In this document: positions 4,562 to 59,358 of the stretch, one piece after another
Position numbering within the stretch: position 1 is the first letter of the stretch
Layout: the number at the start of each line of letters is the position of its first letter
From: a virus
Reading direction: 5' to 3' (one strand)
DNA length: 64,000 nucleotides
Virus record (IMG/VR): IMGVR_UViG_3300044627_003356
Program-made: the position numbers and the translations under genes
The notes under the pieces: model-generated
Told to the model about the DNA's origin: nothing
Seen by the model: only the letters and a program-made list of their open reading frames with translations
Database searches by the model: none

Positions 4562-4591
4562 TTTTACTTAATCCTTGTTATTAGTTATTAG

Positions 4592-4599
4592 TATTTATA
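4592..4599 (-). promoter_or_regulatory. T4-type late promoter TATAAATA
   Basis: Exact motif overlapping the upstream stop codon, about 30 nt before the fibre ATG. Confidence 0.7.
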
Positions 4600-5980: not shown

Positions 5981-6008
5981 TGTTTATCCTAAAATCTAAT
6001 TTATATGT

Positions 6009-6016
6009 TATTTATA
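6009..6016 (-). promoter_or_regulatory. T4-type late promoter TATAAATA
   Basis: Exact motif in the short intergenic gap. Confidence 0.7.
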
Positions 6017-7165: not shown

Positions 7166-7169
7166 TTAC

Positions 7170-7721
7170 TTAAAAACTTCCGCCATCCTTTGTTGTATCA
7201 TCATTAATAGGTAAAACAGACGACTCTTTCAGTACTTCCAAAACTTTATTTTCTTCTTCTAATTTCTTACGCTTGGCAGGAGTTAATTGTAAATATTCAA
7301 TTTGATTAGTTAATTCTTTAATTTGATTTTCAAAATTTGTACGAGTTTTTTGGTGTTCTTCTCGTTCTTTATTTAATTCATCACGAAAAACATTAACATG
7401 TTGAACTTGGTGTTTAACATTTTCATATTCAGTTTTCATCCTATTCAACTCTGCCATTTGAACATTTAAATGATTAATGGTATCTAAATGTCCTTTGACA
7501 GCGCTTTCAAGATTATTAATTTTAGATTCAATTTCTTGATTTTTATCAGTTTTAATTGATTCTAAATTACTTTTTAATTCTTCAATTCTTTTTACTTGCT
7601 CATTAATAACATCTTCAGTAACTCTTGCATTAGCTTGTAGAGATATGTTTCTGATAACTGCATCAGTCATTGTACTAGTTAATATCTCTACATAATAATT
7701 TAAATACTTGTTGTTATCCAT
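7170..7721 (-). CDS. coiled-coil protein in fibre cluster ending DGGSF
   Basis: 183 aa, heptad-rich. Confidence 0.6.
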   Translation of the reverse strand: MDNNKYLNYYVEILTSTMTDAVIRNISLQANARVTEDVINEQVKRIEELKSNLESIKTDKNQEIESKINNLESAVKGHLDTINHLNVQMAELNRMKTEYENVKHQVQHVNVFRDELNKEREEHQKTRTNFENQIKELTNQIEYLQLTPAKRKKLEEENKVLEVLKESSVLPINDDTTKDGGSF

Positions 7722-7759
7722 TTCAAACTCCTATCATAAAAAAATTATATAGTCACGAA

Positions 7760-9958: not shown

Positions 9959-9996
9959 TTTTTCTCTCTTTTATTATTATTTTACCACTTTTTTAT

Positions 9997-10197
9997 TTAT
10001 GTAAATGTACCACCGTCAACCACATTTATGGTAACGTTGGCGATGTAATTTGGACCGCCTATTTCTACTATTTGACTATCTCTACTGCCAATAAACAACG
10101 TATTTGAAGCAAACGAATACGCTAACTCACCATCATCCAGTGTTGTTGGTCTAGTATTTGCATATGACCGAAGAATTTGTATGGTTGTATTGGCCAT
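9997..10197 (-). CDS. 66-aa fibre adaptor-like protein
   Basis: Paralog of the 7760..9958 N-terminus (GELAYSFASNTLFIG) ending VDGGTFT. Confidence 0.65.
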   Translation of the reverse strand: MANTTIQILRSYANTRPTTLDDGELAYSFASNTLFIGSRDSQIVEIGGPNYIANVTINVVDGGTFT

Positions 10198-43173: not shown

Positions 43174-43458
43174 TTAAAAAAATTCTGCCGTTTTTTCTAT
43201 ACCATTATTTTTACAATAGTCGTTTCTGTAATTAAAAAACGATTCAACAGCTGGTTCTAATTTCCATTTTTCAAAAGTTTCGGCATCTTTAAAAATTGTA
43301 GTAAAAACTACCGTTTTTTGGTTTTCATTTTCAACTTTATAATTATCAATTATTTTATTTGTGGTTAGATATTCATCTCTGGTTTGAATAAAATTTTCAG
43401 GCACATCCCAAAAAACAGGTGGCCAAGTTGGGAATTTAAATGTCATCACGGTTGTCAT
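43174..43458 (-). CDS. hypothetical protein
   Basis: 94 aa; ATGA-coupled to the exonuclease. Confidence 0.55.
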   Translation of the reverse strand: MTTVMTFKFPTWPPVFWDVPENFIQTRDEYLTTNKIIDNYKVENENQKTVVFTTIFKDAETFEKWKLEPAVESFFNYRNDYCKNNGIEKTAEFF

Positions 43459-44111
43459 TTGTATTGGTCCTTATAAAATTGTATAGCTTTTACCAAACCA
43501 AGAATGTGGTCTTGTGTCTGTTGTTTAAATATCAATGGCTGTTCATCTTCAACCGCCATAATAATAACTAAGTTATTTATAGGTATGCCAATCATTTCTT
43601 CATACATCAAAGCGTATGCTGCCGTTTGCCAATAATAATCTTCAATGTCTGCACTTGATTTAATCTTCTTGGATGTTTTAAAATCAATTACGGATAACTC
43701 ACCATCGAACTCAGCAATACAATCGACCCTACCTGCCATTTCTAATTGTTTAGACCATAAGGCACACTCTTGATAATGAATATTGTTAATGCGATTGAGT
43801 AATGGTTTAAGTGTTCTAAACATTTCAACAGCATCAGGCATAATATCACCTAACGGTTCATTATTTAAATATCGTTCACATAGTGTATGTACATTGGTGC
43901 CACGACTAGTTGCCTTCTTTGATACACGATTGGCTTCTTCTTCACCAACTCTCTTACGCCATTTCATAATAGCTTCTTTCTTCTGAGCACCAAGAACTGT
44001 GGTGACCGATGGTAACTTCGTACCATCTTCTAGTGTGTAGTAACGTTTACCATCAGGAAAGGTTTCGGATTTTAAGTCAGCAAGGACTTTAGGGGGGCAA
44101 AATTTAAACAT
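43455..44111 (-). CDS. PD-(D/E)XK exonuclease (Cas4-like phage exonuclease)
   Basis: PSVTTVL; W..RVG.EEA; RGT.VH..CE.YL; AGRVDCIAE.DG..SVIDFKTS; Q..AY..M..E. Confidence 0.9.
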   Translation of the reverse strand: MFKFCPPKVLADLKSETFPDGKRYYTLEDGTKLPSVTTVLGAQKKEAIMKWRKRVGEEEANRVSKKATSRGTNVHTLCERYLNNEPLGDIMPDAVEMFRTLKPLLNRINNIHYQECALWSKQLEMAGRVDCIAEFDGELSVIDFKTSKKIKSSADIEDYYWQTAAYALMYEEMIGIPINNLVIIMAVEDEQPLIFKQQTQDHILGLVKAIQFYKDQYK

Positions 44112-44472
44112 TTTTTATTTTTTCCAATACTTCATTTGATATTTCATGATGATACTGATACCACAAATGCACTCTTTCTGTTTCAATAGGAATAAAAACT
44201 GAATGTTCCAGACTATTCGTCTTAATTAATACCGGTATGCCATCGGCGGGCTGATGTATTTCGGTAATTTTTCCATTTTCTTTGAATCTCCATATTGTAT
44301 CAGGACTAGTTTTTAATGCTATGTGTATTCTATAAGGTGTGTGTTCATCATAATGATAACTTATTTCATTCCAAGTATTTGGTTTAACAAATTTATCTAT
44401 TTCGGTTGTCAGCCTTTCTATATCAACAAAAAAGTTTTTTAACGGTATAAAAAAATTATTCATAGTTACCAT
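44104..44472 (-). CDS. short cupin/dioxygenase-like protein (AspH-like)
   Basis: HYD...RIHIALKT...H.PADG......T...HS......RVHL. Confidence 0.55.
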   Translation of the reverse strand: MVTMNNFFIPLKNFFVDIERLTTEIDKFVKPNTWNEISYHYDEHTPYRIHIALKTSPDTIWRFKENGKITEIHQPADGIPVLIKTNSLEHSVFIPIETERVHLWYQYHHEISNEVLEKIKNV

Positions 44473-44633
44473 TTATTTTTGGGGCATTTTGTGTCAATTA
44501 AAAGTGTTTTTGTTTTTAAAACACAATTACAAACGGAACACATTGCTACCATTTTATTAACCATAAACTCACATTTAGAACAAATTTCCATTCTTTCTTT
44601 TTGCATTTTAAATTGTGGTAAAGTTAACATCAT
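44466..44633 (-). CDS. 55-aa Cys-rich metal-binding protein
   Basis: Not in ORF track; ...ERMEICSKCEF...MCSVCNCVLKTK...TKCPKNKW*; coupled to both neighbours. Confidence 0.7.
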   Translation of the reverse strand: MMLTLPQFKMQKERMEICSKCEFMVNKMVAMCSVCNCVLKTKTLLIDTKCPKNKW

Positions 44634-45205
44634 CTTTTATCCAATAAATTTAATTCTTGAAACACTTCAACCATTTTGTCCCAAGTTTTAATATTTCCTT
44701 TTAGACGAATACTAATAGCCCATCTTGGTTTTTCCCCCATCATTATTGCATGAGGAATATCCACTCTCACTAGTGTTAAATTAGATTGTATTCGTGTTTT
44801 ATCAATTTCTTTTAATTCATCAATTGGCCAATTAATATATGGAGTTCCCGCTACAGTATATAATATTTTTTTTTCTTTTTTTGGTAATTCATACCAAATC
44901 ATATCGGAATCTTCCCCTCCCACCACAAAATTTAATCCAGATATATCACAATCAACACTTCCAACTTTTATATCTATGTGTGCAAAATTTGTATTAAAAT
45001 TTGAAGGTCTATAAAATAACATTGCATGATTTACAATAGGAATATTTAATTTTTCAATGTATTTTAACCATTCCGCATCGACAATATCTTTTATGTTTAG
45101 TCTCCAAACTCCGTTGCCTGAAGAATTATTTGGCGCTGGAAAATTCCATTGCGGATTAATAACCGGACAATCAACTTTTAATTTGTACCAACAATTATTC
45201 ATCAA
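44630..45205 (-). CDS. 2OG-Fe(II)/cupin dioxygenase-like protein
   Basis: AHID...LN.V......M.WY...LVRVDIPHA......RW.ISIR. Confidence 0.6.
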   Translation of the reverse strand: MMNNCWYKLKVDCPVINPQWNFPAPNNSSGNGVWRLNIKDIVDAEWLKYIEKLNIPIVNHAMLFYRPSNFNTNFAHIDIKVGSVDCDISGLNFVVGGEDSDMIWYELPKKEKKILYTVAGTPYINWPIDELKEIDKTRIQSNLTLVRVDIPHAIMMGEKPRWAISIRLKGNIKTWDKMVEVFQELNLLDKR

Positions 45206-45821
45206 TGTAACCCAAACGTTTTAGTATTTGTTTACAATGTTTATAATCCCATTTCCAATTTTTAAAATTCCAACCCACAGCAATTCTTTCCTGGCCACTT
45301 AAATTTTTAACTCCATGCCATTCATGTACATTAGTCAGATAAGCATTTCCATAAACTGAATATGTACATATTGGCAATGGAAAATTAGAAATAACTTGAT
45401 TATTATTAGTTTGTTTTTTTGGTAAATCATAATACTCAGAAACACACAATTCAGAACATCCATCTATTGGAAAATAAATTGCTTCAGGTCGCCATTTCCT
45501 ATCAACATGTGGACTCATTATTTGTCCTGGGTTTATTTTTGTTATTGAAGCCGATTTACTCATGTATGGCAACAAGTCTGAAAACTGTTTCCAGAGAGGA
45601 TCCAATCTACATTCTTCAGAAACAAATCCTTTATTAAAATGATTTATGTCTTTACCTTTAGATGGTTCCCATATACCATCTTTTTCCCATATGGCAACAA
45701 TAGCTCTACCTTCATAATCACTGGTCATATTTTTAGCAAAATATTTGTAATAAATTTGCCTCATTGCATTCAATTGAAATTCACTAAACTCACATTTAGA
45801 ATACAAATTGTTAGCATTCAT
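45195..45821 (-). CDS. 2OG-Fe(II) dioxygenase-like protein
   Basis: PHVD....AIYFP...L.NV.EWHGV.N....R.A. Confidence 0.65.
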   Translation of the reverse strand: MNANNLYSKCEFSEFQLNAMRQIYYKYFAKNMTSDYEGRAIVAIWEKDGIWEPSKGKDINHFNKGFVSEECRLDPLWKQFSDLLPYMSKSASITKINPGQIMSPHVDRKWRPEAIYFPIDGCSELCVSEYYDLPKKQTNNNQVISNFPLPICTYSVYGNAYLTNVHEWHGVKNLSGQERIAVGWNFKNWKWDYKHCKQILKRLGYIDE

Positions 45822-45822
45822 T

Positions 45823-46455
45823 TTAATATTCTTGTATGTGTGGATTTTTTATTCCCAATCGAATAATATCTTCATTTGTTAATTCTGGATGAAATCTTAA
45901 ACCACAAATTGTTCTATTGATATTATCAGAAATACCAGAATGTAATATTGTTGTGTTGACCAATAAAGGCCTTTCATCCCAAAGAACCCTTTTAATTTCT
46001 GTAGCGTCATGCCGAGGTAACCATCCATAATTTATTTTAGGATTCAATCCATCTTTCATTGCATCAATTAATTTAATTTTGTCAGTTTTAAACCAAGCTG
46101 TGTAAGAATTTTCATAATCTGATATACCTATGTTTATGGAGTGTGTTGAAATGTATGGGCTGTAAGCGTCAACATGAACCTTATGTATATTGTTTAATAT
46201 GACTTTTTTTGAAACCAAAATTCTACGAAATTTATTTTGCAAACCAACACTATTTAAATATTTCTTTAAGGTTGGACAATAATTATATACATGAACAGCA
46301 TCGATATTATAATAAGATGCGTTTGTTGCATAAATTTGTTTATTTGGTTCATTTATTAATTTTTTCAATTCCTCCCTAATAATTTCTAAATTAGGAATAA
46401 CAAAATAACTATAAAACCAGTCCGGAAACAATGGAGTATAAACCATTTTTTCCAC
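45823..46455 (-). CDS. 2OG-Fe(II)/cupin dioxygenase-like protein (ATG start likely 46446)
   Basis: VHVD....SINI......S.T.W...P.LVNT.ILHSG......R....LRF; CATAAATA at 46502-46509. Confidence 0.6.
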   Translation of the reverse strand: MEKMVYTPLFPDWFYSYFVIPNLEIIREELKKLINEPNKQIYATNASYYNIDAVHVYNYCPTLKKYLNSVGLQNKFRRILVSKKVILNNIHKVHVDAYSPYISTHSINIGISDYENSYTAWFKTDKIKLIDAMKDGLNPKINYGWLPRHDATEIKRVLWDERPLLVNTTILHSGISDNINRTICGLRFHPELTNEDIIRLGIKNPHIQEY

Positions 46456-46523
46456 CCATCTGGAATATTCTTGTTGCTGTTTTTCCGAGGTAATTTGTAG
46501 ATATTTATGAATTTTTATTTTTC

Positions 46524-46976
46524 CTATAACATTCTACCAACAATGATATCCTCATCAATGTAACCCATTCGATGAAGTATTGGGCTAAAGTCATTTGACG
46601 ACTTTATGTGCCAGGTAATTTTGTTGGCACCAAGTTCTTTCATTTTTTGTTCGGAATATTTAATTAATTTTAATCCAAATCTTCCTACTCTATGTTCCTT
46701 TTTTAGAAACAATACATCGTTACTTGCAACCAAGATATCTTTATAATGTATATGTGGTTTTAAAAAGAAAGCACTATAACCAATCAATTCTTTATTGATT
46801 CTAGCTGTAAATAAAAAAAACTGATTGTTATCTTCTAATTTTTTATATGCTTCCCAATCAGGATTCAATTTTACTTTATCTTTATACAAAGTAATTTCTT
46901 GGTAATGAAAATTTGTCAATTCTTCCATTTCAGGAAGAATGTCAAACAAAGATTCAATTTTTAAATCGAGTGTCAT
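46524..46976 (-). CDS. GNAT family acetyltransferase
   Basis: LIGY..F...H.HY.....A..D..FL..EHR..R.G.KL.K..E...K..G. Confidence 0.75.
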   Translation of the reverse strand: MTLDLKIESLFDILPEMEELTNFHYQEITLYKDKVKLNPDWEAYKKLEDNNQFFLFTARINKELIGYSAFFLKPHIHYKDILVASNDVLFLKKEHRVGRFGLKLIKYSEQKMKELGANKITWHIKSSNDFSPILHRMGYIDEDIIVGRML

Positions 46977-47839
46977 TATTTATTAATGTTTTGAATAATG
47001 TTTTTAAGGTTTTGAGAACCCAATGCATAAGTTGTGGATTCCTCTTGTTTAAAATCTTCAATTACTTTAGAGTTATTCATATAATCATTTATAAGATTTT
47101 GCCAATAAGTTATTGTTTCTTGTGGGGTGCCTTTAGGTGCCACGAAGCAGTAGCCCGCAATATCGATCCAATTTTTGTACAAACTATCAAAAGCAACTAA
47201 ATTTGGTTCAACACTCAATTTACTCGTTGATCCTAACATAATCAATTTTCCTGATTGTACATGGTCTTTTACAACCGCATAAGGAAGAATGGCAAAATCA
47301 GTTTGACCACCTATCAAATCCGTCAAAACATTAGAAACACTTTTGTATGAAGCTTTAACAACTTCGGTCTTTGGTTTAACATTATCCAATACTTGGTTGA
47401 TAAACAACAACTGTGCCGGTGTATTATACCCAAACGCATATGGCACACCCATCTTCATTCTTTTTGAAAAATCATTATATGATTTAACATTTGTTTTTGT
47501 ATTGGTTACCAACACGGCTGTAAATTTACGAGTTGCTGTAATGTATTCAAACTCTAAATTGTTATTTTTTACGACTGATGCTACCGATCCAATAGTTGTA
47601 TAACCAATGAAAGTACCGTCTTTCGGTGATTTAGAAAGTTCTTGTAGTCCAATAAGACCTTCAGCTCCAGGTTTCATCATTGCGACAAATTTTACATTCT
47701 TATTTTCATTTACATATTTTTCAAAATGTCTTAAAGAAAGTTCAACACCACCACCTTGGCCAAAAGGTACAATTACTTTTGTTTCGGCAAACACATTGAG
47801 AGAAAGTAGGCATAAAAATGCCAATATAATTTTATTCAT
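46976..47839 (-). CDS. Bug/TctC tripartite tricarboxylate transporter substrate-binding-like protein
   Basis: Signal peptide; VIVPF..GGG; KPGA.G.IG; DG..I; YK.....TDL.GG; APKGTP. Confidence 0.85.
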   Translation of the reverse strand: MNKIILAFLCLLSLNVFAETKVIVPFGQGGGVELSLRHFEKYVNENKNVKFVAMMKPGAEGLIGLQELSKSPKDGTFIGYTTIGSVASVVKNNNLEFEYITATRKFTAVLVTNTKTNVKSYNDFSKRMKMGVPYAFGYNTPAQLLFINQVLDNVKPKTEVVKASYKSVSNVLTDLIGGQTDFAILPYAVVKDHVQSGKLIMLGSTSKLSVEPNLVAFDSLYKNWIDIAGYCFVAPKGTPQETITYWQNLINDYMNNSKVIEDFKQEESTTYALGSQNLKNIIQNINK

Positions 47840-48995
47840 CGTTTCCTTTTCTTACAAAAAAAATATCACTAATCATTGTTTTTATTCCTGGTGTTGAACT
47901 ATTAAAATTTGTTAAGAATCTTTTATCTATACCAGAAGTGACTGTTTTGACATTACTAAAAAATGCATCTTTTAGTTCATCAAATTCACCACATTCAAAA
48001 AACCAAAACCATTTGTCTTGTCGTGTTGCACTTCTTGGTTTATCAGCTTGAAATTTGTTATAATCCCAAGTGTCATAACAAGTTAACTTACCAATATTAT
48101 TTTGAACTTGAATTATAACACTTAACTGAAAATTAAATTGTGAACCCTTTTGAGCAACGGCATTGTTTGCTACCTCATATATTCTCAAAAACTTTTTTTT
48201 ATCTTCATTAATGATATAATAATTGGCGGCCTGATATGCCATTTCAAAAGTTAAAATAGGAAAATCTGGCGACCAATAAAAACACTCTTTATTATCTGGA
48301 TCATCATCTTTTGTTTTATTGGCGTATAACATTGTTGTCGCCAAATCATTAAAAAACATATAAATGTCATTGTTGTGTATTGCTAGTGATGGTTTATCAA
48401 TACCAAAAATATGTCCGGTTCTTTTTTTCGACAATGATATATCTATACCGGTAAAAGATTGCAGTATGCCTGCTCGAGTGTGGTCAATAATTTCAAAAGA
48501 AGATTCTAAATTTTTTATAGTCAGTTCATCTGTATAATCATTAATTGTTATTTTAATTTCCGGATTAGTAAGTTTAAGTTTATCCAATTCAGGTTTGACA
48601 ACAAAATCCCATTCACTCCAGTAATTTCTGGCTGTTCCATCGACAATGTTTTTCTCATAGAACTTACCATCAACCAAGGGTTTTGGCCAATTCACAATAA
48701 TTTCATCTAATTTTATATTATTATTGATAAACGACATCAATACATTATGACTATCAGCGCCACCAGAATAATAAAGAATTAAATATTCATAGTTGTCCCG
48801 CAACTGTTGAGCTCGTTCTTTATATAATTGATTTAAAGGTATTTTACCTAAAACAGACCGGTCAAATTTTTTCCACACATCATCATGGTACATAAATTTA
48901 ACTTTAGTGTCATTACGAGATGCATAAAGTAAAGCTTCAATTTTGTTGTAAAATTTTAACCCATTCGTATACCAATAGCCATATTTTTCTGTCAT
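47832..48995 (-). CDS. PP-loop adenine-nucleotide alpha-hydrolase (AsnB-C/QueC-like)
   Basis: LY..RAQQLRD.Y.YL.LYYSGGADS.N.L..F; G.DKP; FYW. Confidence 0.7.
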   Translation of the reverse strand: MTEKYGYWYTNGLKFYNKIEALLYASRNDTKVKFMYHDDVWKKFDRSVLGKIPLNQLYKERAQQLRDNYEYLILYYSGGADSHNVLMSFINNNIKLDEIIVNWPKPLVDGKFYEKNIVDGTARNYWSEWDFVVKPELDKLKLTNPEIKITINDYTDELTIKNLESSFEIIDHTRAGILQSFTGIDISLSKKRTGHIFGIDKPSLAIHNNDIYMFFNDLATTMLYANKTKDDDPDNKECFYWSPDFPILTFEMAYQAANYYIINEDKKKFLRIYEVANNAVAQKGSQFNFQLSVIIQVQNNIGKLTCYDTWDYNKFQADKPRSATRQDKWFWFFECGEFDELKDAFFSNVKTVTSGIDKRFLTNFNSSTPGIKTMISDIFFVRKGNDE

Positions 48996-49630
48996 GATTT
49001 TATGATATTTCTAAAACTATTTTTTGAAAGTGAATCACACAATTCTTGAAAAGAAGGATTTCCTTCAAATTTTGTTTGTAATACAATTCTATCTTTGGGG
49101 CCAGAACAAACATAACTATGAAAAACATCTGTATTCACAACATACACATCACCAACTTCTGTTCGGAGTTCTTCTGTATAAGGAAAATTTTCAAAATCTT
49201 CTATTGCGTGAGCATTTCTGGTATAATTTAATTCAATTTTTGCCGGCACATCACCAAATTTATAAACATCTTCATCTTTATGCCAACGCACCCAATCATT
49301 ATCATTACAGTTTATTGCAATATTTAATGCTGCTTTATCGTTAATACCATCTTTATGTATTAAAAATTTAGATCCAGCTGGTGTATAAAATGCTTTTTGA
49401 TTGTAATAATTTTTTTTATGTGCCATTTCACCAACCCCGTTGGCGATTAATCTGACATACAAATTATAATTTTCAAATATTTTTAAAAACTCACAATTCA
49501 AATTATACGTTAACCATATCCATTGATTTTTTGATTTTTTCGGATCTTTTAACTTTAGTATTTCTTCACGAAAAAAATCAATCGTTTCTTTAGGTAATTT
49601 GCCTAATTTTTTATAATTTTTTGGCATCAT
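48992..49630 (-). CDS. 2OG-Fe(II)/cupin dioxygenase-like protein
   Basis: IHKDG...AALNI......VRW...VVNTD.FHS......R. Confidence 0.6.
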   Translation of the reverse strand: MMPKNYKKLGKLPKETIDFFREEILKLKDPKKSKNQWIWLTYNLNCEFLKIFENYNLYVRLIANGVGEMAHKKNYYNQKAFYTPAGSKFLIHKDGINDKAALNIAINCNDNDWVRWHKDEDVYKFGDVPAKIELNYTRNAHAIEDFENFPYTEELRTEVGDVYVVNTDVFHSYVCSGPKDRIVLQTKFEGNPSFQELCDSLSKNSFRNIIKS

Positions 49631-50582
49631 GCAATATATTTCTTTCTCTTTTCCAATCAGTCGTAATGTATAACGGCATTCTTTCTAGAATTTGTGTTGG
49701 TGTTCTATATGATCTCCAAGAATGAAGTTTAATTTTTTCTTTTGTATATTCGTCATCTTTGGTGAACTCATATAGTTGTTTTTTTAATGGTAACTTATAA
49801 TTTTTAAACTCATATCCAGGATATTTATTTTCAGCTGAAGTGGATACGGCATAATCATTCCAATCTGATGTACCACCAAAATGAAATAAATTTTTATCCA
49901 AAATCATTTCATCAATCTCCAACAACCACATCAATTGTTCTGCTTGGTAATTCAATGCATAATCTAACCACCAAAAGAAATCTTTAACGTCCACAATTTC
50001 TCTTGGGCAGGCCTGTATTAATCTAGTATAGTTCTCCTGTGAGAATTTGTCAACCTCTTTAAGAAAGTCTGCCATTTTTTGTGAAAGTTTACTTTGAGGC
50101 ATAGTTCTATACATTCCAGCACCAAACACAGGATCCAATAAATGGCCAGTAACAATGATGCCATCTTTTAATGAATTTTTTAAAGAATTGGTCGTATAGA
50201 AATCCATTTGGCGAATTTCTAATTGGTCTTTAATATACTTTTCATAATATTCAGAATACTCCCTAATTGAGTTATCGTTCATCATTACAGCTATCTGTTC
50301 TTTGGGAGCAATCTTTAATAATTCAGATAATGTTAATGTAGAATCAATACCTCCACTCCAAGTTACAACTATTTTTTTTGAACCAGCGGCATTCACTATT
50401 TTTTTAGCTGAATCGTAACAAAGTTCTTCAACGGTTTTTGGTGTACAGAGTTTACCAATAGGTGTAATTGTTTCAATCTCAGGCAAATCAAACATTTTAC
50501 CTGTTCTGTCGTGTGCTGTAAAAATAACGATTGGATTTTTTATAGCAGGATTTATACCCCAATGGTAAAAATACTTTTTCAC
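49611..50582 (-). CDS. PP-loop adenine-nucleotide alpha-hydrolase (WSGGIDST family)
   Basis: DRT; V.WSGGIDST; SI.EY; TG...D..FG; DF.WW; K.PLK...Y.FTKD..Y...K.K..S. Confidence 0.75.
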   Translation of the reverse strand: MKKYFYHWGINPAIKNPIVIFTAHDRTGKMFDLPEIETITPIGKLCTPKTVEELCYDSAKKIVNAAGSKKIVVTWSGGIDSTLTLSELLKIAPKEQIAVMMNDNSIREYSEYYEKYIKDQLEIRQMDFYTTNSLKNSLKDGIIVTGHLLDPVFGAGMYRTMPQSKLSQKMADFLKEVDKFSQENYTRLIQACPREIVDVKDFFWWLDYALNYQAEQLMWLLEIDEMILDKNLFHFGGTSDWNDYAVSTSAENKYPGYEFKNYKLPLKKQLYEFTKDDEYTKEKIKLHSWRSYRTPTQILERMPLYITTDWKRERNILHDAKKL

Positions 50583-50752
50583 AAGATACCTTCTTTTTTT
50601 AGAAAATCAATAGATTCGGTTTTACCTAACCACACATGAGATGGAAATTTAATATTTAAGTTATAATTTTCTGGTGGAGGAGAATACAGATGAGAAAACC
50701 TATAATCTTTTAAATCTTCTTCTATATTAGTGGGACATTCATTGTTTACCAT
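50579..50752 (-). CDS. 57-aa hypothetical protein
   Basis: Not in ORF track; MVNNECPTNIEEDLKDYRFSHLYSPPPENY...FPSHVWLGKTESIDFLKKEGIL*; TGA overlaps GTG of the next gene. Confidence 0.55.
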   Translation of the reverse strand: MVNNECPTNIEEDLKDYRFSHLYSPPPENYNLNIKFPSHVWLGKTESIDFLKKEGIL

Positions 50753-51458
50753 GTTCTATTACCTTTATTAAAATACCACCCAAATCAAAAAATTCTGGCC
50801 GGTGATTGAAGATATATCTTTTAGCATTGTTGTGATGTTCTTTATGTATCCATTCACCTGCCATTGGAATAATGAATTCCATGTACCACAAATTTTGTGG
50901 TTCTCCATTTTTATGAGCATAGATGGTTTGTAAACCACTAGTAACAAGATATGTTGAAATTGGTAAAGCAAAACCGTATAAAAAAAGATTGCTATCAATA
51001 ACAAATAACATTATACCTGCCACTAAAAATAAAGATAAAGAATGATTCATTAAAAATCTGTGCATTGGATCACGCATCATCTTCAATTCATTTTTCCCTG
51101 CCACAATATTATTTCTTTCTTTAAATCTTAAAAAATATTTAAAGTTGCTTTCATATGGATCCATAGGTGTGTCAGAATATCGATGATGGGTACGATGAAC
51201 AGCAGACCAAGAAACTGGAGAAGAATTTAAAGTGATTGCACCAAATAGTCCAAAAATCCAATGCCATACTTTGGAACAAATAAATGCGTTATGACAAAAT
51301 AATCGGTGATAACCAACTGTTACTGTGATAGCAATACAGAGATAAACAAAAAAAGATAATACAAACCAAAGAAAGTTTGTGTTAGTTGTGTATACTAAAA
51401 TTAATATTGGTAAAAGCATCCATGCACCTATGGTTCGGTGCCAAGATTTGGTTTTCAT
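50739..51458 (-). CDS. membrane fatty-acid desaturase (delta-9-like)
   Basis: His boxes GYHRLFCH, HRTHHRYSDT..DP, GE..HKEHH; TM helices; start set at the ATGA overlap. Confidence 0.88.
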   Translation of the reverse strand: MKTKSWHRTIGAWMLLPILILVYTTNTNFLWFVLSFFVYLCIAITVTVGYHRLFCHNAFICSKVWHWIFGLFGAITLNSSPVSWSAVHRTHHRYSDTPMDPYESNFKYFLRFKERNNIVAGKNELKMMRDPMHRFLMNHSLSLFLVAGIMLFVIDSNLFLYGFALPISTYLVTSGLQTIYAHKNGEPQNLWYMEFIIPMAGEWIHKEHHNNAKRYIFNHRPEFFDLGGILIKVIEHGKQ

Positions 51459-51955
51459 GTGAAAAATAATCCATAACAATCTTTATCTAAAGCTTGAACT
51501 TCAACATCTCCACTACGGACTCGCACTTGACATGGTCCTGTAAATATCTTTGTATTAATTTCGAATTGACCTCTGGCCAACCAGAAATTGGTTTTATTGG
51601 TAAAATTTGTTTTTTCACCTGATTTTAAAACTAACGATGAAAGATTTGGCAAACCATTTTTATTATGTTTATGTGATATACAAACCCATTCTGTTTCTAC
51701 GGGAAATGATAATAATAAATTTCCTGTTGAATTTGCTTTAGCATCAGGATGTTCATAATTCAGCCAACCAGGAATCCTGTCCTGAAGTTCTTCATTTGTT
51801 TCAATGACTTTTACCTTGGCCAAACCTTTTGTGTAGAAATAATATCCTGATGTTACAAGTCCATCAACACCCAACTCAACAACTCTTTCATCACCTACAT
51901 CCGCTTCAACAACAAAAACGGTGTAACCAAAAGCTGCATAAGGTTTCATTTTCAT
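51455..51955 (-). CDS. hypothetical beta-rich protein
   Basis: 166 aa, coupled within the operon. Confidence 0.6.
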   Translation of the reverse strand: MKMKPYAAFGYTVFVVEADVGDERVVELGVDGLVTSGYYFYTKGLAKVKVIETNEELQDRIPGWLNYEHPDAKANSTGNLLLSFPVETEWVCISHKHNKNGLPNLSSLVLKSGEKTNFTNKTNFWLARGQFEINTKIFTGPCQVRVRSGDVEVQALDKDCYGLFFT

Positions 51956-52344
51956 ACAGTTGCTCCAGCCATTTCAGATAAAGTTCTTTGAATTGCAACA
52001 GTAATTTTTACTCTATACAATTCAGCGAAATCAAAATTATCAATAGTTGAGATTTGATATTGGCCAGGAACTGGTTGAACATTTGTAAATCTTTCACAAA
52101 CTTGTTGTTTTCCAATTGATTCTTCTATAAAAGATAAATCAGCATCAGTAACAGATTGAGCTTTCATATGTTCAACTGTTGGAGCATATTTTTTAATAAT
52201 TTCTTGCAAGTCGGAAAGGCTTTCTGGTAGCGGTGAAGTTAGTCTAATGAAAGCCCAAGTACCATCTCCAAAAGTAACTTTCAAAGTTTTGTTTTCTTTA
52301 TTGAATTCTTCAATTTTATATTGTAAAATAAAAACATCGTTCAT
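51952..52344 (-). CDS. hypothetical protein (possible adhesin chaperone)
   Basis: 130 aa immediately downstream of the Gly-rich adhesin. Confidence 0.55.
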   Translation of the reverse strand: MNDVFILQYKIEEFNKENKTLKVTFGDGTWAFIRLTSPLPESLSDLQEIIKKYAPTVEHMKAQSVTDADLSFIEESIGKQQVCERFTNVQPVPGQYQISTIDNFDFAELYRVKITVAIQRTLSEMAGATV

Positions 52345-52345
52345 T

Positions 52346-53350
52346 TTATGCTAATCCTCCAGCTACTGTTCCACTATTATTTAATGTTACTGAGTTTATG
52401 CCTTTAACGAGATATCTACCAGCAGATCCAGCTGCATTTCCACCAGCGCCACCTGAACCAGCAGAACCAGCGCCATTATTACCGGAAGATCCTGTACCTC
52501 CGGTACTACCAGACCCACCATTAGTTCCGGCCGCACCAAATGCTCCTCCAGCACCACCAAGCCCCCCCGTGCCGCCTGTACCTCCAACACCTGCATTTGT
52601 GCCACCAGCAGCACCAGCGTTTCCTCCTGCACCACCAACACCATTGGTAGAAGCTTGATTATACCCTTGGCCTACTCCACCAGATCCTCCAGCTCCACCA
52701 GATCCTCCAGCTCCACCACTTGTAAAAGTTCTATTATATTGATTAAAAAAGTTTGTGTTTTTAGCGCAAGAAACACCTGTATCGATAGCGTAAGTATAAC
52801 CACCTGGATTACCACAAGTTTGTGTTATAAAAGTATCAAAAAATCCTGGTCCACCTTGGCCACCTGTGCCACCAGTACCACCAGAACCACCACCGCCGCC
52901 ACCACCGTAAATAACAGCTCCCGATTTATTGTTAATAACAACGGTTTGATTTCCGAAATTAGCATTTATTGCATCACCACCAACTGAGCTTCCTGCTCCA
53001 CCAAATCCTTGGATTGCTCCATAGTTATTGATAATACACGTTGATCCTGTTGGAAATTGGCCAAGTGTTAAAGCTGTTGTGCCGGATCCACCAATCACCC
53101 TTGCTGTATCAACAAGGACTTTATATGTGGCTACCGTAGCGGGAGATGATAAAAAACTATAAACATTTAAATTTGTTGTGTTTGATGCATATCCAGTACC
53201 TCTGGCAGAATTTGTATCAATTGCACCAGCCAACTGGTCGGCTAACTTTCTAAACGTATCATCATTCCAACTGAATTGAGCGGTAGATGACCTACCCAAT
53301 TCAGTATTAATTTGAGATGCGGAAATTGCGCCTGTGATAGATAATGGCAT
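52346..53350 (-). CDS. glycine-rich gp38-like adhesin
   Basis: IINNYGAIQGFGG; VINN.SG.VIYGGGGGGG; GG.GG.GG runs; C-terminal NNSGTVAG; CATAAATA at 53377-53384. Confidence 0.65.
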   Translation of the reverse strand: MPLSITGAISASQINTELGRSSTAQFSWNDDTFRKLADQLAGAIDTNSARGTGYASNTTNLNVYSFLSSPATVATYKVLVDTARVIGGSGTTALTLGQFPTGSTCIINNYGAIQGFGGAGSSVGGDAINANFGNQTVVINNKSGAVIYGGGGGGGSGGTGGTGGQGGPGFFDTFITQTCGNPGGYTYAIDTGVSCAKNTNFFNQYNRTFTSGGAGGSGGAGGSGGVGQGYNQASTNGVGGAGGNAGAAGGTNAGVGGTGGTGGLGGAGGAFGAAGTNGGSGSTGGTGSSGNNGAGSAGSGGAGGNAAGSAGRYLVKGINSVTLNNSGTVAGGLA

Positions 53351-53388
53351 TTGTGTTTTTTTTAGTTAATAATGGTTATTTATGTCAA

Positions 53389-54147
53389 TCATTCCTGATC
53401 TTCGATCTTCAATTTGGCCAAAATATACTCTTTTACAAGACTACTACGAACAATATCGTCAGCAGTAAATTCAATCTTGGTAAAAGCGGTCATGTGCATG
53501 GCAATATCAAAGAATCTTAATATGCCCGACATATCATTCTTGCGTTTATTTAAATCAGTCTGGCGATAATCACCACACCATAATATCTTTGACCTGTAAC
53601 CTACTCGTGTCATTACAGTATCAATTTCTTCAAAGGTTAAGTTCTGCATCTCATCTACAAGAATAATGGCATCATCAAATGACATACCACGAATGAATGA
53701 TGTAGAGATAAACTCAATGTGACCTTGTTCAGTTAATCGTTGATAAGCATCTTTACGACCAAAAAGTGTTTCACAAATTTGTTGATATGGCTGTTGAAAG
53801 ATTTCCATCTTCTCAGATACATCACCTGGTAGATGGCCAATCTCTCTTGATTGTACGGCTGACCGAACAATAATAATCTTATTGAATGGATTGGATTTAT
53901 CCAATACTTCTTCTAGTGCTTTGTATAAGGCACAGAATGTTTTACCTGTACCTGCAACACCATGTAATGCAACAAAGTAGTCCCCTTGTTTGTATGCATC
54001 AAAGAAAATCTTTTGGTTATCTGTTAATGGTTCAAATGTTTTTAAATCATCAATACGGACTTTTAATGCGTTTGTCTGTCTATTGTGTGGTTCTTTGTCG
54101 TGCGGTGTTGCCACATCAGGTAGAACTCTTTTTTTGGTCGCCATCAA
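53389..54147 (-). CDS. phoH: PhoH family protein
   Basis: PLT.NQ; G.AGTGKT; RS.V..REIG.LPG; SF.RG..FD.....DE.QN; TRVG..S.I..CGD..Q.D; DIVRS.LV. Confidence 0.95.
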   Translation of the reverse strand: MMATKKRVLPDVATPHDKEPHNRQTNALKVRIDDLKTFEPLTDNQKIFFDAYKQGDYFVALHGVAGTGKTFCALYKALEEVLDKSNPFNKIIIVRSAVQSREIGHLPGDVSEKMEIFQQPYQQICETLFGRKDAYQRLTEQGHIEFISTSFIRGMSFDDAIILVDEMQNLTFEEIDTVMTRVGYRSKILWCGDYRQTDLNKRKNDMSGILRFFDIAMHMTAFTKIEFTADDIVRSSLVKEYILAKLKIEDQE

Positions 54148-54171: not shown

Positions 54172-54450
54172 TTACCACTCCCTAGGCTTCTTTGTCTTAT
54201 GACCAGACATTGTATTACCAGGTATTGTATCTTTCATTCGCTGAATCACACCGTGTTCAAATGCCGCATGAGGTTGGCCAATGCCTGGAACCGACATACG
54301 AGCACCATCACCAAAGATGGGAAGGTTATCAGCCGAGTGGTATCGTGTAAGATGTGGATTGTCTTGCAGAAATTGATCCAACACCGTGTAAGACATACGG
54401 TGCTCTTCAATTGTATCTGTTTGTTTATTTAAAAAATCATATGCAGGCAT
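54172..54450 (-). CDS. FmdB-like conserved phage protein
   Basis: MPAYDF.N..T....E..MS......F...NP; start taken at 54450. Confidence 0.55.
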   Translation of the reverse strand: MPAYDFLNKQTDTIEEHRMSYTVLDQFLQDNPHLTRYHSADNLPIFGDGARMSVPGIGQPHAAFEHGVIQRMKDTIPGNTMSGHKTKKPREW

Positions 54451-55019
54451 TATGCGGCTTTCTTCATGATCATATTTGTTAACCATTTAGGTTCTGGTCT
54501 ACTATTTATCTTACCTTTCCATGACCACATACGTTGTTTTTCATTAAAGTAATAATTGTGGTATGACTGTAATGAATTACCTGGTACTTTGCAATAGTCT
54601 GGCATGGCAGGTGTAGGACCAGTAAATGGTTTATTTGGAATATTGGTAGGTAGAACACCAAGGTCTGGTATCAAACGAGCACACGCATGAACCTTACCAT
54701 AACGATAGGTAAACTCACTCAATAGTTCACACCACATATTGTACAACCATAGATAGTTTTTGTCTGATTGGCGCACCCATATGGCGGATGGGTGGTTCAT
54801 CATTGTAGGCTTCATGAGGCGTTCTTCACGACCATCAGGCAGTCGCCATGCCTTAATTGAACGGTTATTGGCAGACAGTCTGCGGTATTCTTCACCGTCA
54901 AGTACACGATGTGTAGTGGAAAGTAACTGAGCATACTCGATTACCATTTTGCAAACGTGTTTGTCAAGGTGCATTTCAGCACAAATTTTGGGATCATTAT
55001 CTAGATAAAAAATATTCAT
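54450..55019 (-). CDS. pyrimidine-dimer DNA glycosylase-like protein
   Basis: MNIFYLD.DP..CA..H.DKHV.KM..EYAQLLST.H; NHPS..W.R....Y.WL; E...RYGK.H; AMPD. Confidence 0.7.
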   Translation of the reverse strand: MNIFYLDNDPKICAEMHLDKHVCKMVIEYAQLLSTTHRVLDGEEYRRLSANNRSIKAWRLPDGREERLMKPTMMNHPSAIWVRQSDKNYLWLYNMWCELLSEFTYRYGKVHACARLIPDLGVLPTNIPNKPFTGPTPAMPDYCKVPGNSLQSYHNYYFNEKQRMWSWKGKINSRPEPKWLTNMIMKKAA

Positions 55020-56602: not shown

Positions 56603-57559
56603 ATGGTGGACTTTATGCTTAAGATTTTTATATTTTGTTTGTTTTTCATTTCATCACACTTTTCACATTCCAGTGATTTTAAAGATAAACCCATTACCAT
56701 AATTTCAGGTTTTTCTCCTGGTGCAACCGACCAAGCTTTAAGACCTTATATAGAAGCATTTGAGAAGAATGGTTATAAAATTGTGGTAGAACACAAACCT
56801 GGAGCAAATGGTATAGTTGCATTAAATTATTTTTCAAATAATGTTAAACCTGATGGGTATACATTGTTTGCAACTGCTTCTTCCATGTTTACTCTCGCAC
56901 CTATAGTTTCTTCCGACATTTTAAAAAATAATGGAGTTGATTTAATTACCACTATTGCCGCTGGTCCAATAGTTTTGGTTTCAAATAAACAATCGAATGT
57001 AAAAACATTAAAACAATTTCAAGATGATTTATTAAAGAATGATAACTCAATAAGCATTGCTTCACCAAGTTTATTTTTTGAATATGCCTCAAGATATTTG
57101 ATTAAAGAATCAACAAAACAATCAATTAATGTTCCAATTGTTAACTATAAATCTGGATCAGATGCTATTAAAGATGTTTTGGGTGGTCATGTAAAATATG
57201 GAGTTCTACAATTATCTGTAGCCACACCATTTATAAATTCTGGTGATATAAACATTATTGCAATAAGTGGAGAAAAACGATTTGTTAATTTACCAAATAC
57301 TCCAACATTTTCAGAATTTTTTCCCAATTTCAATTCAAATTTAGAAGCAAGCTGGGGTATAGCATTACCAAAAAATACAGACCCTAAAATTTATAAATTT
57401 TATCATGATTTTTTCACAAAAGTGGCTCGTGAAGAAGAAACAAAAGAAAAACTATTAAAAACTTTTATGATAATTCCCAATAATTACGTTGGCAAAAAAG
57501 CTTTTGAAAATAGAATTAATAAAGAATCTATAATGTGGAAATCAATTACAATAAAATGA
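56603..57559 (+). CDS. Bug/TctC substrate-binding-like protein (start may be 56615)
   Basis: Signal peptide; KPI.II.GF.PG.TD; VEHKPGANG..A; PDGYTL; YK.G..A..DV.GG.V; R...LP..PT..E; WG...P..T. Confidence 0.9.
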   Translation: MVDFMLKIFIFCLFFISSHFSHSSDFKDKPITIISGFSPGATDQALRPYIEAFEKNGYKIVVEHKPGANGIVALNYFSNNVKPDGYTLFATASSMFTLAPIVSSDILKNNGVDLITTIAAGPIVLVSNKQSNVKTLKQFQDDLLKNDNSISIASPSLFFEYASRYLIKESTKQSINVPIVNYKSGSDAIKDVLGGHVKYGVLQLSVATPFINSGDINIIAISGEKRFVNLPNTPTFSEFFPNFNSNLEASWGIALPKNTDPKIYKFYHDFFTKVAREEETKEKLLKTFMIIPNNYVGKKAFENRINKESIMWKSITIK

Positions 57560-58263
57560 ATGGTATTGAACAATATCTGTATCTCGTTGTTAACCGAGAA
57601 AATAATTTTATATACTCCATGTGTGACAATTGTTCAATAGCAAACGCATTGAGTAAAGGTTTTATAAATTCTTCTGTAATGGCCATTCCTTATACGTTAT
57701 TTAAAAGGCCTGCGACCGTTATTGACTATGTAAAAAATGAACATATCACATACAAGCTTGTTAATCAATTTATGTATGGAGGTAATAATTTAGAGTCAAA
57801 TTTAGGGGAAACTATAAAAAAAACAAACACAGGTAAACTTTTTGACATTGTTTTAATTGATACAAATTTACCGAATGACTGGATAAAAATAAGAAAAATT
57901 TGTAATACTCGTACAATTATACTGATCAATTTAGAAAACAAATTAAAACGTTACTTCGCTAGATATAAAGAATCTTTTTATGATGAATCTTTCTACAATT
58001 TTTTAACAAAAGAACTGGAAGAATGTTTTCCTACAGAAAATATTTTTTCCCCTTTAATTTTAGAATATGCAAAAATAATAAAATTAGAACCAAACGAAAC
58101 TTTTCAACATCTAAAAATGAAACATGATTGTTTTAAACTATGTATTTTTAGACATACGGCTTTATGGGAAAAATATGTTGATTTGGTAATCAAAACTGAT
58201 GAAGAAAAAAATGAATTATATCAAAATTTTGAGTTTGAATTGATGGGTATGAATAGAAATTAA
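57535..58263 (+). CDS. hypothetical protein (start likely 57556)
   Basis: 242 aa between Bug and PP-loop genes; ATGA-coupled. Confidence 0.6.
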   Translation: MEINYNKMNGIEQYLYLVVNRENNFIYSMCDNCSIANALSKGFINSSVMAIPYTLFKRPATVIDYVKNEHITYKLVNQFMYGGNNLESNLGETIKKTNTGKLFDIVLIDTNLPNDWIKIRKICNTRTIILINLENKLKRYFARYKESFYDESFYNFLTKELEECFPTENIFSPLILEYAKIIKLEPNETFQHLKMKHDCFKLCIFRHTALWEKYVDLVIKTDEEKNELYQNFEFELMGMNRN

Positions 58264-58266
58264 ACA

Positions 58267-59358
58267 ATGAATTCAATAATTGTTAGCACCGACCATAGTT
58301 ATTCTTTTAAAAAGAATATACAATTTTCTATGAACAAACCCGATTTAAATTTATATTCGGATATACTAAAAATTACTCCTTTTACATGGTTGGTGGACAG
58401 AACAAAATTGTGTAATTTACCTTTCAAGACACATTTTATTGAAGATTATCAATTACCGGAAATAACAAAACATTCTTGTGATAGTTTGGATAATATCTGT
58501 CAAAATATTGTAGAACAGTACAAAAACATCGATAAACAAATTTATATACTTTGGAGTGGAGGAATAGATTCCACTCTGTTAGTAGTTTCTTTTTTAAAAT
58601 CAACAGTACCATACAGTAAAATTACGATTGCATGTAATTTTGATTCTATCAAAGAAAATTATGATTTTTATAAAAAACATATTTTACCAAATTTTAAAAT
58701 AATCTCATCGGATTTTTTAATGCAATCTGTGAGCACATCAACAATTGATGGTATAATATTAAATGGTGATCCAGCTGATGTTTTATATGGATATGATTTA
58801 ACTACTAGTATTTCTAAAATTTTAGGTTTTGATTATTTACAATTACCATGTAATAGAGATAATGTAACAAACTATTTTAAAATAAAAGGACTTTCTGAAC
58901 AATCAGCAAATTTTTGGTATGATTATTTTACTCATTCCATAGACAAATCTCCAAAACCAATAAAAACAATGCAAGATTTTTCTTGGTGGGAAGGGTTTAA
59001 TTATAGATGGCAAGCTGCCAATGAAAAATTTTACGTCAGGTTACCTTTGAATAACTCAAACTGTTACGAAAAAATTTTTAATCGTGCTGAGTTTCAATTG
59101 TGGGCAATTTTTAAAGAACCAATTATCATTAAAAAATTAAATGATATCAAGTTAGAATCTAAAAAAATAATTTTAGATTATACAAAAGATGAGTTCTATT
59201 TTTATAATAAAATAAAATTAAATTCTAATAGCCATGTATTTGGATTGAATTCTTACTCTGCTGTTTTAAACACCGGCCAAAGATTGGCCCAAGAAGAATT
59301 TAATGTTTTTGATTTTTATGATGAAAATAATTTTATTAATGATTGGTTATCTTCTTAG
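58267..59358 (+). CDS. PP-loop adenine-nucleotide alpha-hydrolase (WSGGIDST family)
   Basis: DRT; ILWSGGIDST; SIKEN; G...D..YG; DFSWW; K..SK..I..YTKD..Y...KIK..S; paralog of 49611..50582. Confidence 0.75.
   Translation: MNSIIVSTDHSYSFKKNIQFSMNKPDLNLYSDILKITPFTWLVDRTKLCNLPFKTHFIEDYQLPEITKHSCDSLDNICQNIVEQYKNIDKQIYILWSGGIDSTLLVVSFLKSTVPYSKITIACNFDSIKENYDFYKKHILPNFKIISSDFLMQSVSTSTIDGIILNGDPADVLYGYDLTTSISKILGFDYLQLPCNRDNVTNYFKIKGLSEQSANFWYDYFTHSIDKSPKPIKTMQDFSWWEGFNYRWQAANEKFYVRLPLNNSNCYEKIFNRAEFQLWAIFKEPIIIKKLNDIKLESKKIILDYTKDEFYFYNKIKLNSNSHVFGLNSYSAVLNTGQRLAQEEFNVFDFYDENNFINDWLSS

Follow-up and report, generated by a model that had tools for sequence, protein, structure and literature searches.

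A T4-like phage with a composite accessory island that places a TctC-type binder and an AsnB-like PP-loop enzyme beside candidate oxidative or lipid-tailoring enzymes

The amidating enzymes of the AsnB type, among them human asparagine synthetase (9b6c), Escherichia coli AsnB (1ct9), beta-lactam synthetase (1jgt), TsnB9 (7ylz) and carbapenam synthetase CarA (1q15), have an SGGxDS PP-loop and adenylate a carboxylate, which is then attacked by a nitrogen nucleophile. Bug/TctC proteins, such as BugE (2dvz), Bug27 (2qpq), TphC (7ndr), BugD (2f5x) and AdpC (5oei), bind carboxylates, and in the tripartite transporters they go together with TctA and TctB. The Fe(II)/2-oxoglutarate (2OG) hydroxylases of the AspH/LpxO type and those of small-molecule type (Cpz10, 7v4f, described in PMC9814697; 4p7w; MysH; P4H, 4j25) have in common an HxD...H...R motif and a beta-helix fold. 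In viruses, Delta9 desaturases are established auxiliary metabolic genes (PMC5776448), 2OG oxygenase genes are common in cyanophages, where their role is unexplained (PMC4164917), and in the literature that we searched, viral tctA and 2OG oxygenase genes are named as auxiliary genes with no explanation of their role (PMC4164917, PMC6359870). Here we report on a run of 15 genes (g1 to g15, Table 1) that includes PP-loop, TctC-type, oxygenase and desaturase-like genes, and that lies in a 64,000-nucleotide stretch of DNA of an uncultured T4-like phage, IMG/VR virus record IMGVR_UViG_3300044627_003356. This whole stretch is called the window below.

An earlier note, made from the sequence of the window, had read this run as one adhesin-headed pathway. 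The block is a genuine, conserved and recurrent enzyme island and not a chance run, and it is made up of two recurring cassettes, restricted to viruses, that lie side by side; an array of oxygenases, a GNAT and some small proteins complete it. Cassette A consists of g8 and g9, of which the window has a second copy, and cassette B of g4 to g7 plus the array formed by g11 to g13 and g15, and possibly of g10 and g14. For the comparison with other viruses, 79 IMG/VR loci were fetched with an alignment of g8, and iterative hidden Markov models (HMMs) were grown from each gene of the window. Family counts refer to 86 loci. The linkage statistics refer to 69 non-redundant viral loci, every one of which was chosen through a g8 homolog, and they are not phylogenetically corrected.

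The PP-loop enzyme g8 and the binder g9

The earlier note had pointed out two SGGxDS proteins of the PP-loop adenylase type, and both motifs are real: the YSGGADS motif of g8 was invariant across 46 homologs, and the WSGGIDST motif of g6 across 34. No match to g8 was found in Pfam, NCBIfam or PHROG, and its profile detected no PDB sequence at E values up to 1. An AF2 model of g8 was of good quality (pLDDT 89.7, pTM 0.90), and a Foldseek search of the PDB with this model gave nothing at E <= 0.001, with weak PP-loop matches only; an exhaustive structural aligner (VIA) was needed to rank the model against the PDB chains. In this ranking g8 was aligned with human asparagine synthetase (Z 10.9, 276 residues), E. 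coli AsnB (Z 10.8, 278 residues), beta-lactam synthetase (Z 9.0, 263 residues), TsnB9 (Z 8.7, 265 residues) and CarA (Z 7.9, 272 residues). The matches covered nearly the whole of g8, and the part of AsnB that was aligned comprised residues 136-515 only. As modelled, the fold of g8 is nearest to the synthetase domain of the AsnB-type amidating enzymes, and by analogy the same chemistry, i.e., carboxylate adenylation followed by the attack of a nitrogen nucleophile, would be expected for it. Unlike these enzymes, g8 and g6 are smaller, and g8 has no N-terminal Ntn glutaminase domain with its catalytic Cys (the protein starts with MTEKYG), gives no match to Asn_synthase, belongs to a near-viral family and is coupled to a secreted binder. 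No glutaminase gene was seen among the island genes in Pfam scans.

The shorter protein g6 gave weak matches, confined to the PP-loop, to NAD_synthase, TilS, LarE and QueC, and its profile reached asparagine synthetase at 0.012 only, again over the PP-loop. When the alignments of the two PP-loop families (A1 and A2) were compared by hhalign, a score of 92.5% was obtained over the motif only. In the iterative HMMs, g6, g8 and the PP-loop paralog of the second island merge into one essentially virus-only superfamily, with 195 ORFs in the 86 loci and up to seven ORFs per locus.

The family of g8 is almost wholly viral. Hundreds of homologs, all of them unnamed, were found in metagenomes, and a full HMMER pass with the g8 family collected 1,617 clusters (50% identity) at E values up to 1e-3, of which 637 reached 1e-30. 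The Atlas neighbours of g8 were 100% viral, and in 185,579 prokaryote genomes (one per species) strict patterns recovered a single g8 relative, located on a 1.6-kb contig of a metagenome-assembled genome. When IMG/VR was scanned with patterns made from g6 or g8 alone, nothing was retrieved, and an alignment-based scan gave 223 relatives.

The product of g9 belongs to the Bug/TctC proteins, as the earlier note had proposed together with a signal peptide. It scored 51.8 bits (1.1e-13) with Pfam TctC, for which the cut-off is 27, its paralog in the second island 98.3 bits (7.2e-28), and g9 matched the solved structure of BugE at 3.3e-12. The matches to the five Bug/TctC proteins listed above extended over ~190-245 residues. 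A Sec signal peptide, seen as a hydrophobic stretch at the N-terminus that is closed by an AxA-type sequence, was predicted in 60 of 61 viral TctC homologs versus 3 of 139 long PP-loop proteins, so that g9 is probably exported and g8 is not; since the two would be in different compartments, we do not claim that they bind each other. Unlike the binders of tripartite transporters, g9 is phage-encoded, and the window has no TctA/TctB-like multi-pass membrane ORF, nor any ORF with more than two transmembrane-like segments. A further difference from the known Bug/TctC systems is that g9 is translationally coupled to, and duplicated with, a predicted cytoplasmic PP-loop enzyme.

The TctC family was present in 62 of the 86 loci, and its pairing with the PP-loop enzymes is not a peculiarity of the window. 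Among the 69 loci, 47 of 62 TctC genes directly adjoined a long (>335 aa) PP-loop gene, when shuffled gene orders gave a mean of 8.5 and a maximum of 18. With 60 sequence-unique TctC genes, 46 adjoined a PP-loop gene and 44 were co-oriented with it, in either order and with a median gap of -4 nt. Furthermore, the distances among the PP-loop partners tracked those among the TctC partners (r 0.76; 0 of 2000 permutations in a Mantel test), which shows that both families have diversified together. In the loci that have two pairs, each pair was closest to its own pair elsewhere in 9 of 10 cases, which indicates that the long PP-loop/TctC pairs duplicate as units. The window itself offers an example, and BLAST between the two copies gave 6e-11 for the TctC proteins and 1.8e-17 for the PP-loop proteins.

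Cassette B and its independence from cassette A

The desaturase-like protein g4 has the three His boxes of the membrane Delta9-type enzymes (HRLFCH, HRTHHR and HKEHHNN) and transmembrane-like segments. Its score with Pfam FA_desaturase (6.8e-5, 23.2 bits) is under the cut-off of 29.7, and it matched the DesA family at 2.3e-7 and, over boxes 1-2, mouse SCD1 (4ymk) at 9.2e-7. Desaturases of this family were present in 49 of the 86 loci.

Five proteins of the run carry the HxD...H...R pattern of the Fe(II)/2OG dioxygenases, in agreement with the count of the earlier note. In an alignment of 50 family members, H92 and H171 of g7 were invariant and D94 and R181 were at least 90% conserved, the Arg being located ~10 residues past the distal His of the HxD/E...H motif. 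The AF2 model of g7 (pLDDT 80.5) retrieved only 2OG oxygenases among its top Foldseek matches, the first of which was P4H (4j25, 1.8e-6); the double-stranded beta-helix is read from this model, and g11, g12, g13 and g15 were placed by HMM family only. No usable Pfam match was obtained with g7, g11, g12, g13 or g15, the match of g15 to Asp_Arg_Hydrox, which we take to be the family of LpxO, being weak (0.052), and 4 of the 50 family members reached Asp_Arg_Hydrox. The oxygenase profile weakly matched small-molecule hydroxylases in the PDB, namely Cpz10, proline cis-4-hydroxylase and MysH. The oxygenases of the window differ from the AspH/LpxO-type hydroxylases in that they are highly divergent and have no Pfam 2OG match, and their family forms arrays of up to six paralogs. 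The ~200-aa family to which g7, g11, g12 and g13 belong had 148 ORFs in 56 loci, and the family of g15 overlaps with it. Protein g15 matched residues 80-203 of its 203-aa ortholog in L001 (L001:14998-15609), and its first 28 residues also matched the first 28 of the ortholog; from this alignment g15 looks like an internal deletion that has kept the HxD...H...R core.

These genes are linked to each other. The odds ratio was 15 for short PP-loop genes with desaturases (p 9e-7) and 18 for oxygenases with desaturases (p 4e-6), and for 28 of 59 desaturases a short PP-loop gene was no more than two genes away, versus at most 19 in the shuffles. For TctC with desaturases the odds ratio was 0.75 (p 0.79), and TctC was rarely found beside short PP-loop genes, oxygenases or desaturases, with depletion next to the last two. 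Cassettes A and B thus assort independently of each other, and the genes within each cassette clearly do not, so that the single adhesin-headed pathway of the earlier note gives way to two cassettes. Both come together often: the four families co-occurred within 10 kb in 25 of the 69 loci, and the same neighbourhood surrounds g8 homologs both in L001 and L003, which are T4-like genomes, and in L005, a contig of 348 kb. The neighbours in other loci included P450, Rieske, FA_hydroxylase, NMO/FabK-type and radical SAM proteins and a DctP binder.

Parts of the system are found in cultured phages. Next to its tail-fibre genes, Pelagibacter phage Mosig EXVC030M, a SAR11 phage, encodes a g4 homolog (6.6e-42) together with three members of the g7 oxygenase family, and the HMM of g15 matched its Asp_Arg_Hydrox proteins at 3.3e-33. 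These genes lie in a two-strand tailoring island (MT647606.1 50693-69337), which also encodes a carbamoyltransferase, radical SAM proteins, aminotransferases, a nitroreductase, a TauD-type dioxygenase, methyltransferases and a GNAT. Mosig and the cyanophages with vFAD (PMC5776448) resemble our locus, with its Delta9-type desaturase-like g4, in that they encode short Delta9-type desaturases. They lack PP-loop enzymes and TctC binders, and the desaturase family of the island is statistically tied to the short PP-loop genes. In Pseudomonas phage Cygsa01 (PP179332.1 4622-19374), two adjacent ~300-aa genes annotated as the tRNA 2-thiouridylase MnmA match the short PP-loop family (1.4e-15 and 3e-11) and directly follow baseplate and large hypothetical genes; given this position, the MnmA annotation may be wrong. 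Megablast with the whole island and tblastn with g6, g8, g9 and g1 found nothing in 50,697 phage records, and the long PP-loop/TctC pair is in no cultured phage among the records searched. The statement of the earlier note that no described phage pathway has such a composition agrees with the cultured-phage collection and the literature that we searched.

Proposed role of the island and competing explanations

The reading that we favour, with somewhat less than even confidence, is that of a composite accessory island, in which cassette A serves for carboxylate capture and amidation and cassette B for oxidative or lipid tailoring; put more generally, the island probably takes up small organic acids or lipids and modifies them chemically. 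In this model, g9 would bind an organic acid in the periplasm of the infected host, from where it would be passed to the host's own TctAB permease, g8 would adenylate the captured carboxylate in the cytoplasm, and the acyl-AMP would be resolved with ammonia or an amine, so that an amide is generated. Cassette B would desaturate, hydroxylate and acylate an acyl or amino-acid-like compound. Folds, motifs, the predicted export signal, the gene pairing and the co-diversification are what was observed; the substrate, the route of uptake, the amide product and the late timing are inferred. Small-molecule or lipid chemistry is preferred to protein decoration because the binder is exported, its AsnB-like partner is cytoplasmic, and the neighbours in other loci are of the tailoring type. 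Hence, among the alternatives that the earlier note had offered, a small molecule or an envelope modification with a cognate binder fits better, and decoration of the adhesin fits worse. We also set aside a reading as a pathway for ribosomally synthesized and post-translationally modified peptides (RiPPs) or lasso peptides: the window shows neither a precursor nor a leader peptidase nor a RiPP recognition element, although radical SAM/SPASM genes occur in other loci.

The island is probably transcribed late, as judged from its T4-type boxes. The two boxes that the earlier note had listed are present, and the T4 arrangement, with a TATAAATA-like box shortly upstream of a gene, was found at g1 and at g11. 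As words, they are not enriched over shuffles in the window (8 versus 7.6 expected for TATAAATA, and 6 versus 8.2 for CATAAATA). Nevertheless, their placement is far from random, which makes the late-promoter reading a reasonable one although their frequency is ordinary: 9 of 14 [TC]ATAAATA sites are followed, 26-59 nt downstream, by a gene start on their own strand, versus a background of 4.8%, and 10 of 14 touch non-coding DNA, which makes up 3.3% of the window. A TATAAATA box at 56536 precedes the second binder/synthetase copy. Boxes of either form, TATAAATA or CATAAATA, are also located 28-35 nt upstream of three fibre-like genes (window 2627-10001, minus strand; starts at 4561, 5980 and 9958), which supports the motif as the late promoter of this phage. 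Scans for sigma-70 promoters and terminators gave nothing informative.

Several points weigh against the capture and tailoring model. Late transcription would give little time for nutrient capture. With no TctAB in the window, uptake would depend on a permease of the host, and g8 has neither a glutaminase domain nor a glutaminase partner that would supply it with nitrogen. The likeness of g8 to the amidating enzymes has no counterpart in a sequence match to the Asn_synthase family or to PDB sequences, or in a Foldseek match within the threshold. Finally, the linkage statistics carry the sampling limits given above.

For cassette A, a more specific proposal can be made, which we find possible but rather doubtful: in uncultured aquatic phages, a virus-only family of AsnB shape and without glutaminase, co-diversified with TctC (sometimes DctP) binders, would capture specific dissolved organic acids via the host transporter and trap or convert them as amides. 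If this is true, such phage-run acid capture would represent viral metabolic takeover of a new class, phages would control how infected aquatic bacteria take up dissolved organic carbon and nitrogen and what becomes of these, and the family would add new amide-forming chemistry. As a rule, the auxiliary genes of phages are individual enzymes taken over from a host; in this island we find a large family, restricted almost entirely to viruses and nameless in Pfam, NCBIfam and PHROGs, which is genetically locked to predicted exported nutrient-binding proteins and duplicates with them. Two separable cassettes, proteins that can be expressed singly and two cultured phages with parts of the system (Mosig and Cygsa01) offer handles for its study.

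Instead of small molecules, the enzymes could act on the lipids or the cell-wall carboxylates of the infected cell. This remodelling of the host envelope, which we consider unlikely, would include acyl-chain desaturation, hydroxylation of the LpxO/OlsC type, and amidation of peptidoglycan or polysaccharide acids in the manner of the AsnB-type LtsA or WbpS, and would lead to an altered membrane or to a block of superinfection, with TctC in another role. It is consistent with the SCD/DesC-like character of g4, with Asp_Arg_Hydrox as the nearest family of the oxygenases, with the FA_hydroxylase, P450 and NMO/FabK-type neighbours found elsewhere, with the linkage of short PP-loop, desaturase and oxygenase genes, and with the action of viral Delta9 desaturases on host lipids (PMC5776448). 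However, the coupling of the long PP-loop enzyme to a secreted carboxylate binder would be unexplained, PP-loop enzymes are not known as activators of lipid acyl groups, and the window has no acyl carrier protein, nor an acyltransferase beyond the small GNAT.

The independence of the two cassettes, together with the depletion of TctC beside oxygenases and desaturases, is also what would be expected if a hyperplastic region had gathered a loose collection of morons with no common pathway beyond two-gene pairs. Oxygenase arrays as in the cyanophages, whose common 2OG genes have no explained role (PMC4164917), a desaturase and a PstS-like binding protein would be the parallels, and the island is AT-richer than its flanks and varies widely among loci in gene order and content. 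We regard this account as quite unlikely, in view of the strong linkage within the cassettes, the stop/start overlaps all along the run, the frequency with which the four families meet within 10 kb, and the great diversity of the contigs that carry the loci, among them contigs of 348 kb and 264 kb.

In a further alternative, the late enzymes would hydroxylate, amidate or acetylate the gp38-like tip or other virion proteins. That g1 comes first in the run, preceded by a box of the late type, that protein prolyl hydroxylases were among the top Foldseek matches of g7, and that the relatives in Mosig and Cygsa01 adjoin tail-fibre or baseplate genes would all agree with it. The identity of the adhesin is tentative: g1 had no match of its own in Pfam, the PDB (which gave low-complexity hits only) or the 50,697 phage records, and, with no Pfam GP38 match and a position between phoH and g2 and not beside a fibre gene, it departs from T-even gp38. 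Its positional equivalent in L003 matches Pfam GP38 (2.1e-12), and both proteins share the N-terminus, Gly motifs and the C-terminus in an alignment with 33% identity, a value that is compositionally biased; BLASTP with composition correction found nothing between them. The polyglycine protein that the earlier note had placed at the head of the run is thus there, but without a GP38 match of its own. The expected co-occurrence of adhesin and enzymes across phages does not hold either: of the 69 loci, just 3 had a Gly-rich gp38-like gene together with the enzymes, and in each of these it formed a trio with g2- and g3-like genes that precedes the desaturase. Furthermore, the binder would be exported away from virion assembly, and the neighbouring enzymes elsewhere are of the small-molecule kind. 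Decoration of virion proteins is therefore very unlikely as a general explanation. In L003 the whole block, including the g1-g2-g3 trio, is on the opposite side of the exonuclease gene, which indicates that the trio moves with the enzymes in this lineage, and for this lineage only, the relocation lends weak support to adhesin decoration.

No family match was found for g2 in Pfam, PHROG or NCBIfam, and it has little in common with a 125-aa protein of L003 (L003:7310-7687) except a C-terminal stretch ending in GATV. By hhalign, g3 showed no relation to the other families that lie upstream of desaturases, and in the Atlas it retrieved viral hypothetical proteins only, with a pirin lead below 0.9.

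It is highly improbable that the PP-loop paralogs modify a tRNA or DNA base in the manner of QueC, TilS, MnmA or TtcA, with the oxygenases acting on nucleic acid. Such a role would agree with the weak QueC, TilS, LarE and NAD-synthase matches, which cover the PP-loop only, with the viral Atlas clusters tied to g8, which have QueC in 13-14% of their members, and with the Cygsa01 homologs, which are annotated as MnmA and lie near a tRNA gene. Against it, the whole fold of the g8 model is nearest to the AsnB-type amidating enzymes and not to tRNA thiolases, no QueD, QueE, FolE or DpdA match was found in the Pfam, PHROG and NCBIfam searches of the 15 proteins, and the pairing with an exported carboxylate binder would be unexplained.

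Layout of the run and neighbouring genes

The 15 genes, all on the minus strand, extend from 53350 down to 44104 between phoH and the exonuclease gene. Their junctions overlap by 1-25 nt or are spaced by 1 nt, with the 68-nt gap between g10 and g11 as the sole exception. The GC content is 0.28-0.33 across 44-52 kb, compared with ~0.36 for the window, and a further AT-rich patch (GC 0.26) lies at 57-59 kb. The AT-rich, overlapping run of 15 genes described in the earlier note is borne out by these values, and every motif that it listed (His-box, WSGGIDST, YSGGADS, five HxD...H...R, GNAT, Cys-rich and signal-peptide TctC) is present.

Table 1. Features of the island and its surroundings in the window.
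Feature	Position	Strand	Length (aa)	Description
CATAAATA box	53377-53384	-		T4-type late-promoter-like; 26 nt upstream of the g1 start
Second CATAAATA box	46502-46509	-		46 nt upstream of g11, within the only sizeable intergenic gap
phoH	53389-54147			Flanks the run; Pfam PhoH 4.6e-44
g1	52346-53350	-	334	Tentative gp38-like tail-fibre-tip protein, 29% Gly; phrog_10745 1.2e-10
g2	51952-52344	-	130	Travels with g1; ortholog in L001
g3	51455-51955	-	166	In the close lineage, directly precedes the desaturase gene in every case; 7 loci
g4	50739-51479	-	246	Short membrane Delta9-type (SCD/DesC-like) desaturase-like protein, three His boxes
g5	50579-50752	-	57	Orthologs only in loci L001 and L008
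g6	49611-50582	-	323	Short stand-alone PP-loop enzyme, WSGGIDST; superfamily common with g8
g7	48992-49630	-	212	Fe(II)/2OG oxygenase; H92, D94, H171, R181
g8	47832-48995	-	387	Long stand-alone PP-loop enzyme, AsnB-synthetase-like by its model, YSGGADS
g9	46976-47839	-	287	Carboxylate-binding protein of the Bug/TctC type, predicted to be exported; 8-nt overlap of its start with the g8 stop
g10	46524-46976	-	150	GNAT acetyltransferase; Pfam Acetyltransf_1 2.3e-9; phrog_1249 1.9e-13
g11	45823-46455	-	210	Fe(II)/2OG oxygenase paralog, g7 HMM family; HxD...H...R
g12	45195-45821	-	208	Fe(II)/2OG oxygenase paralog, g7 HMM family
g13	44630-45205	-	191	Fe(II)/2OG oxygenase paralog, g7 HMM family
g14	44466-44633	-	55	Cys-rich mini-protein, CxxC...CxxCxC; phrog_13558 2.5e-11; DUF6171 3.2e-4, below cut-off
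g15	44104-44472	-	122	Shortened AspH/Cpz10-like 2OG oxygenase core, HYD...H...R (by eye)
Exonuclease gene	43455-44111			PD-(D/E)XK exonuclease, flanks the run; phrog_298 1.8e-75
ORF downstream of the exonuclease gene	43174-43458	-	94	Member of a ~100-aa family; HMM 2.4e-12
Second binder/synthetase copy	56603-59358	+		TctC paralog, 242-aa ORF and PP-loop paralog
TctC paralog	56603-57559	+	318	Part of the second copy
PP-loop paralog	58267-59358	+	363	Part of the second copy
ORF just upstream of phoH	54172-54486	-	104	Transcriptional-regulator family phrog_385, 2.4e-8

The ~100-aa family, to which the ORF downstream of the exonuclease gene belongs, was found beside the module in 37 loci, more often than any other neighbour without a label, and it often flanks a cytochrome P450 gene. 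A Pfam search gave no match for this ORF or its family; in size and position it may resemble the helper proteins of the EthD/ABM type. Some loci (L005, L024, L050 and L053) combine, in a space of 20 kb, 5-7 PP-loop paralogs and 2-3 TctC genes with genes for radical SAM/SPASM, cupin and P450 proteins, and loci of this type are a much larger version of the island.

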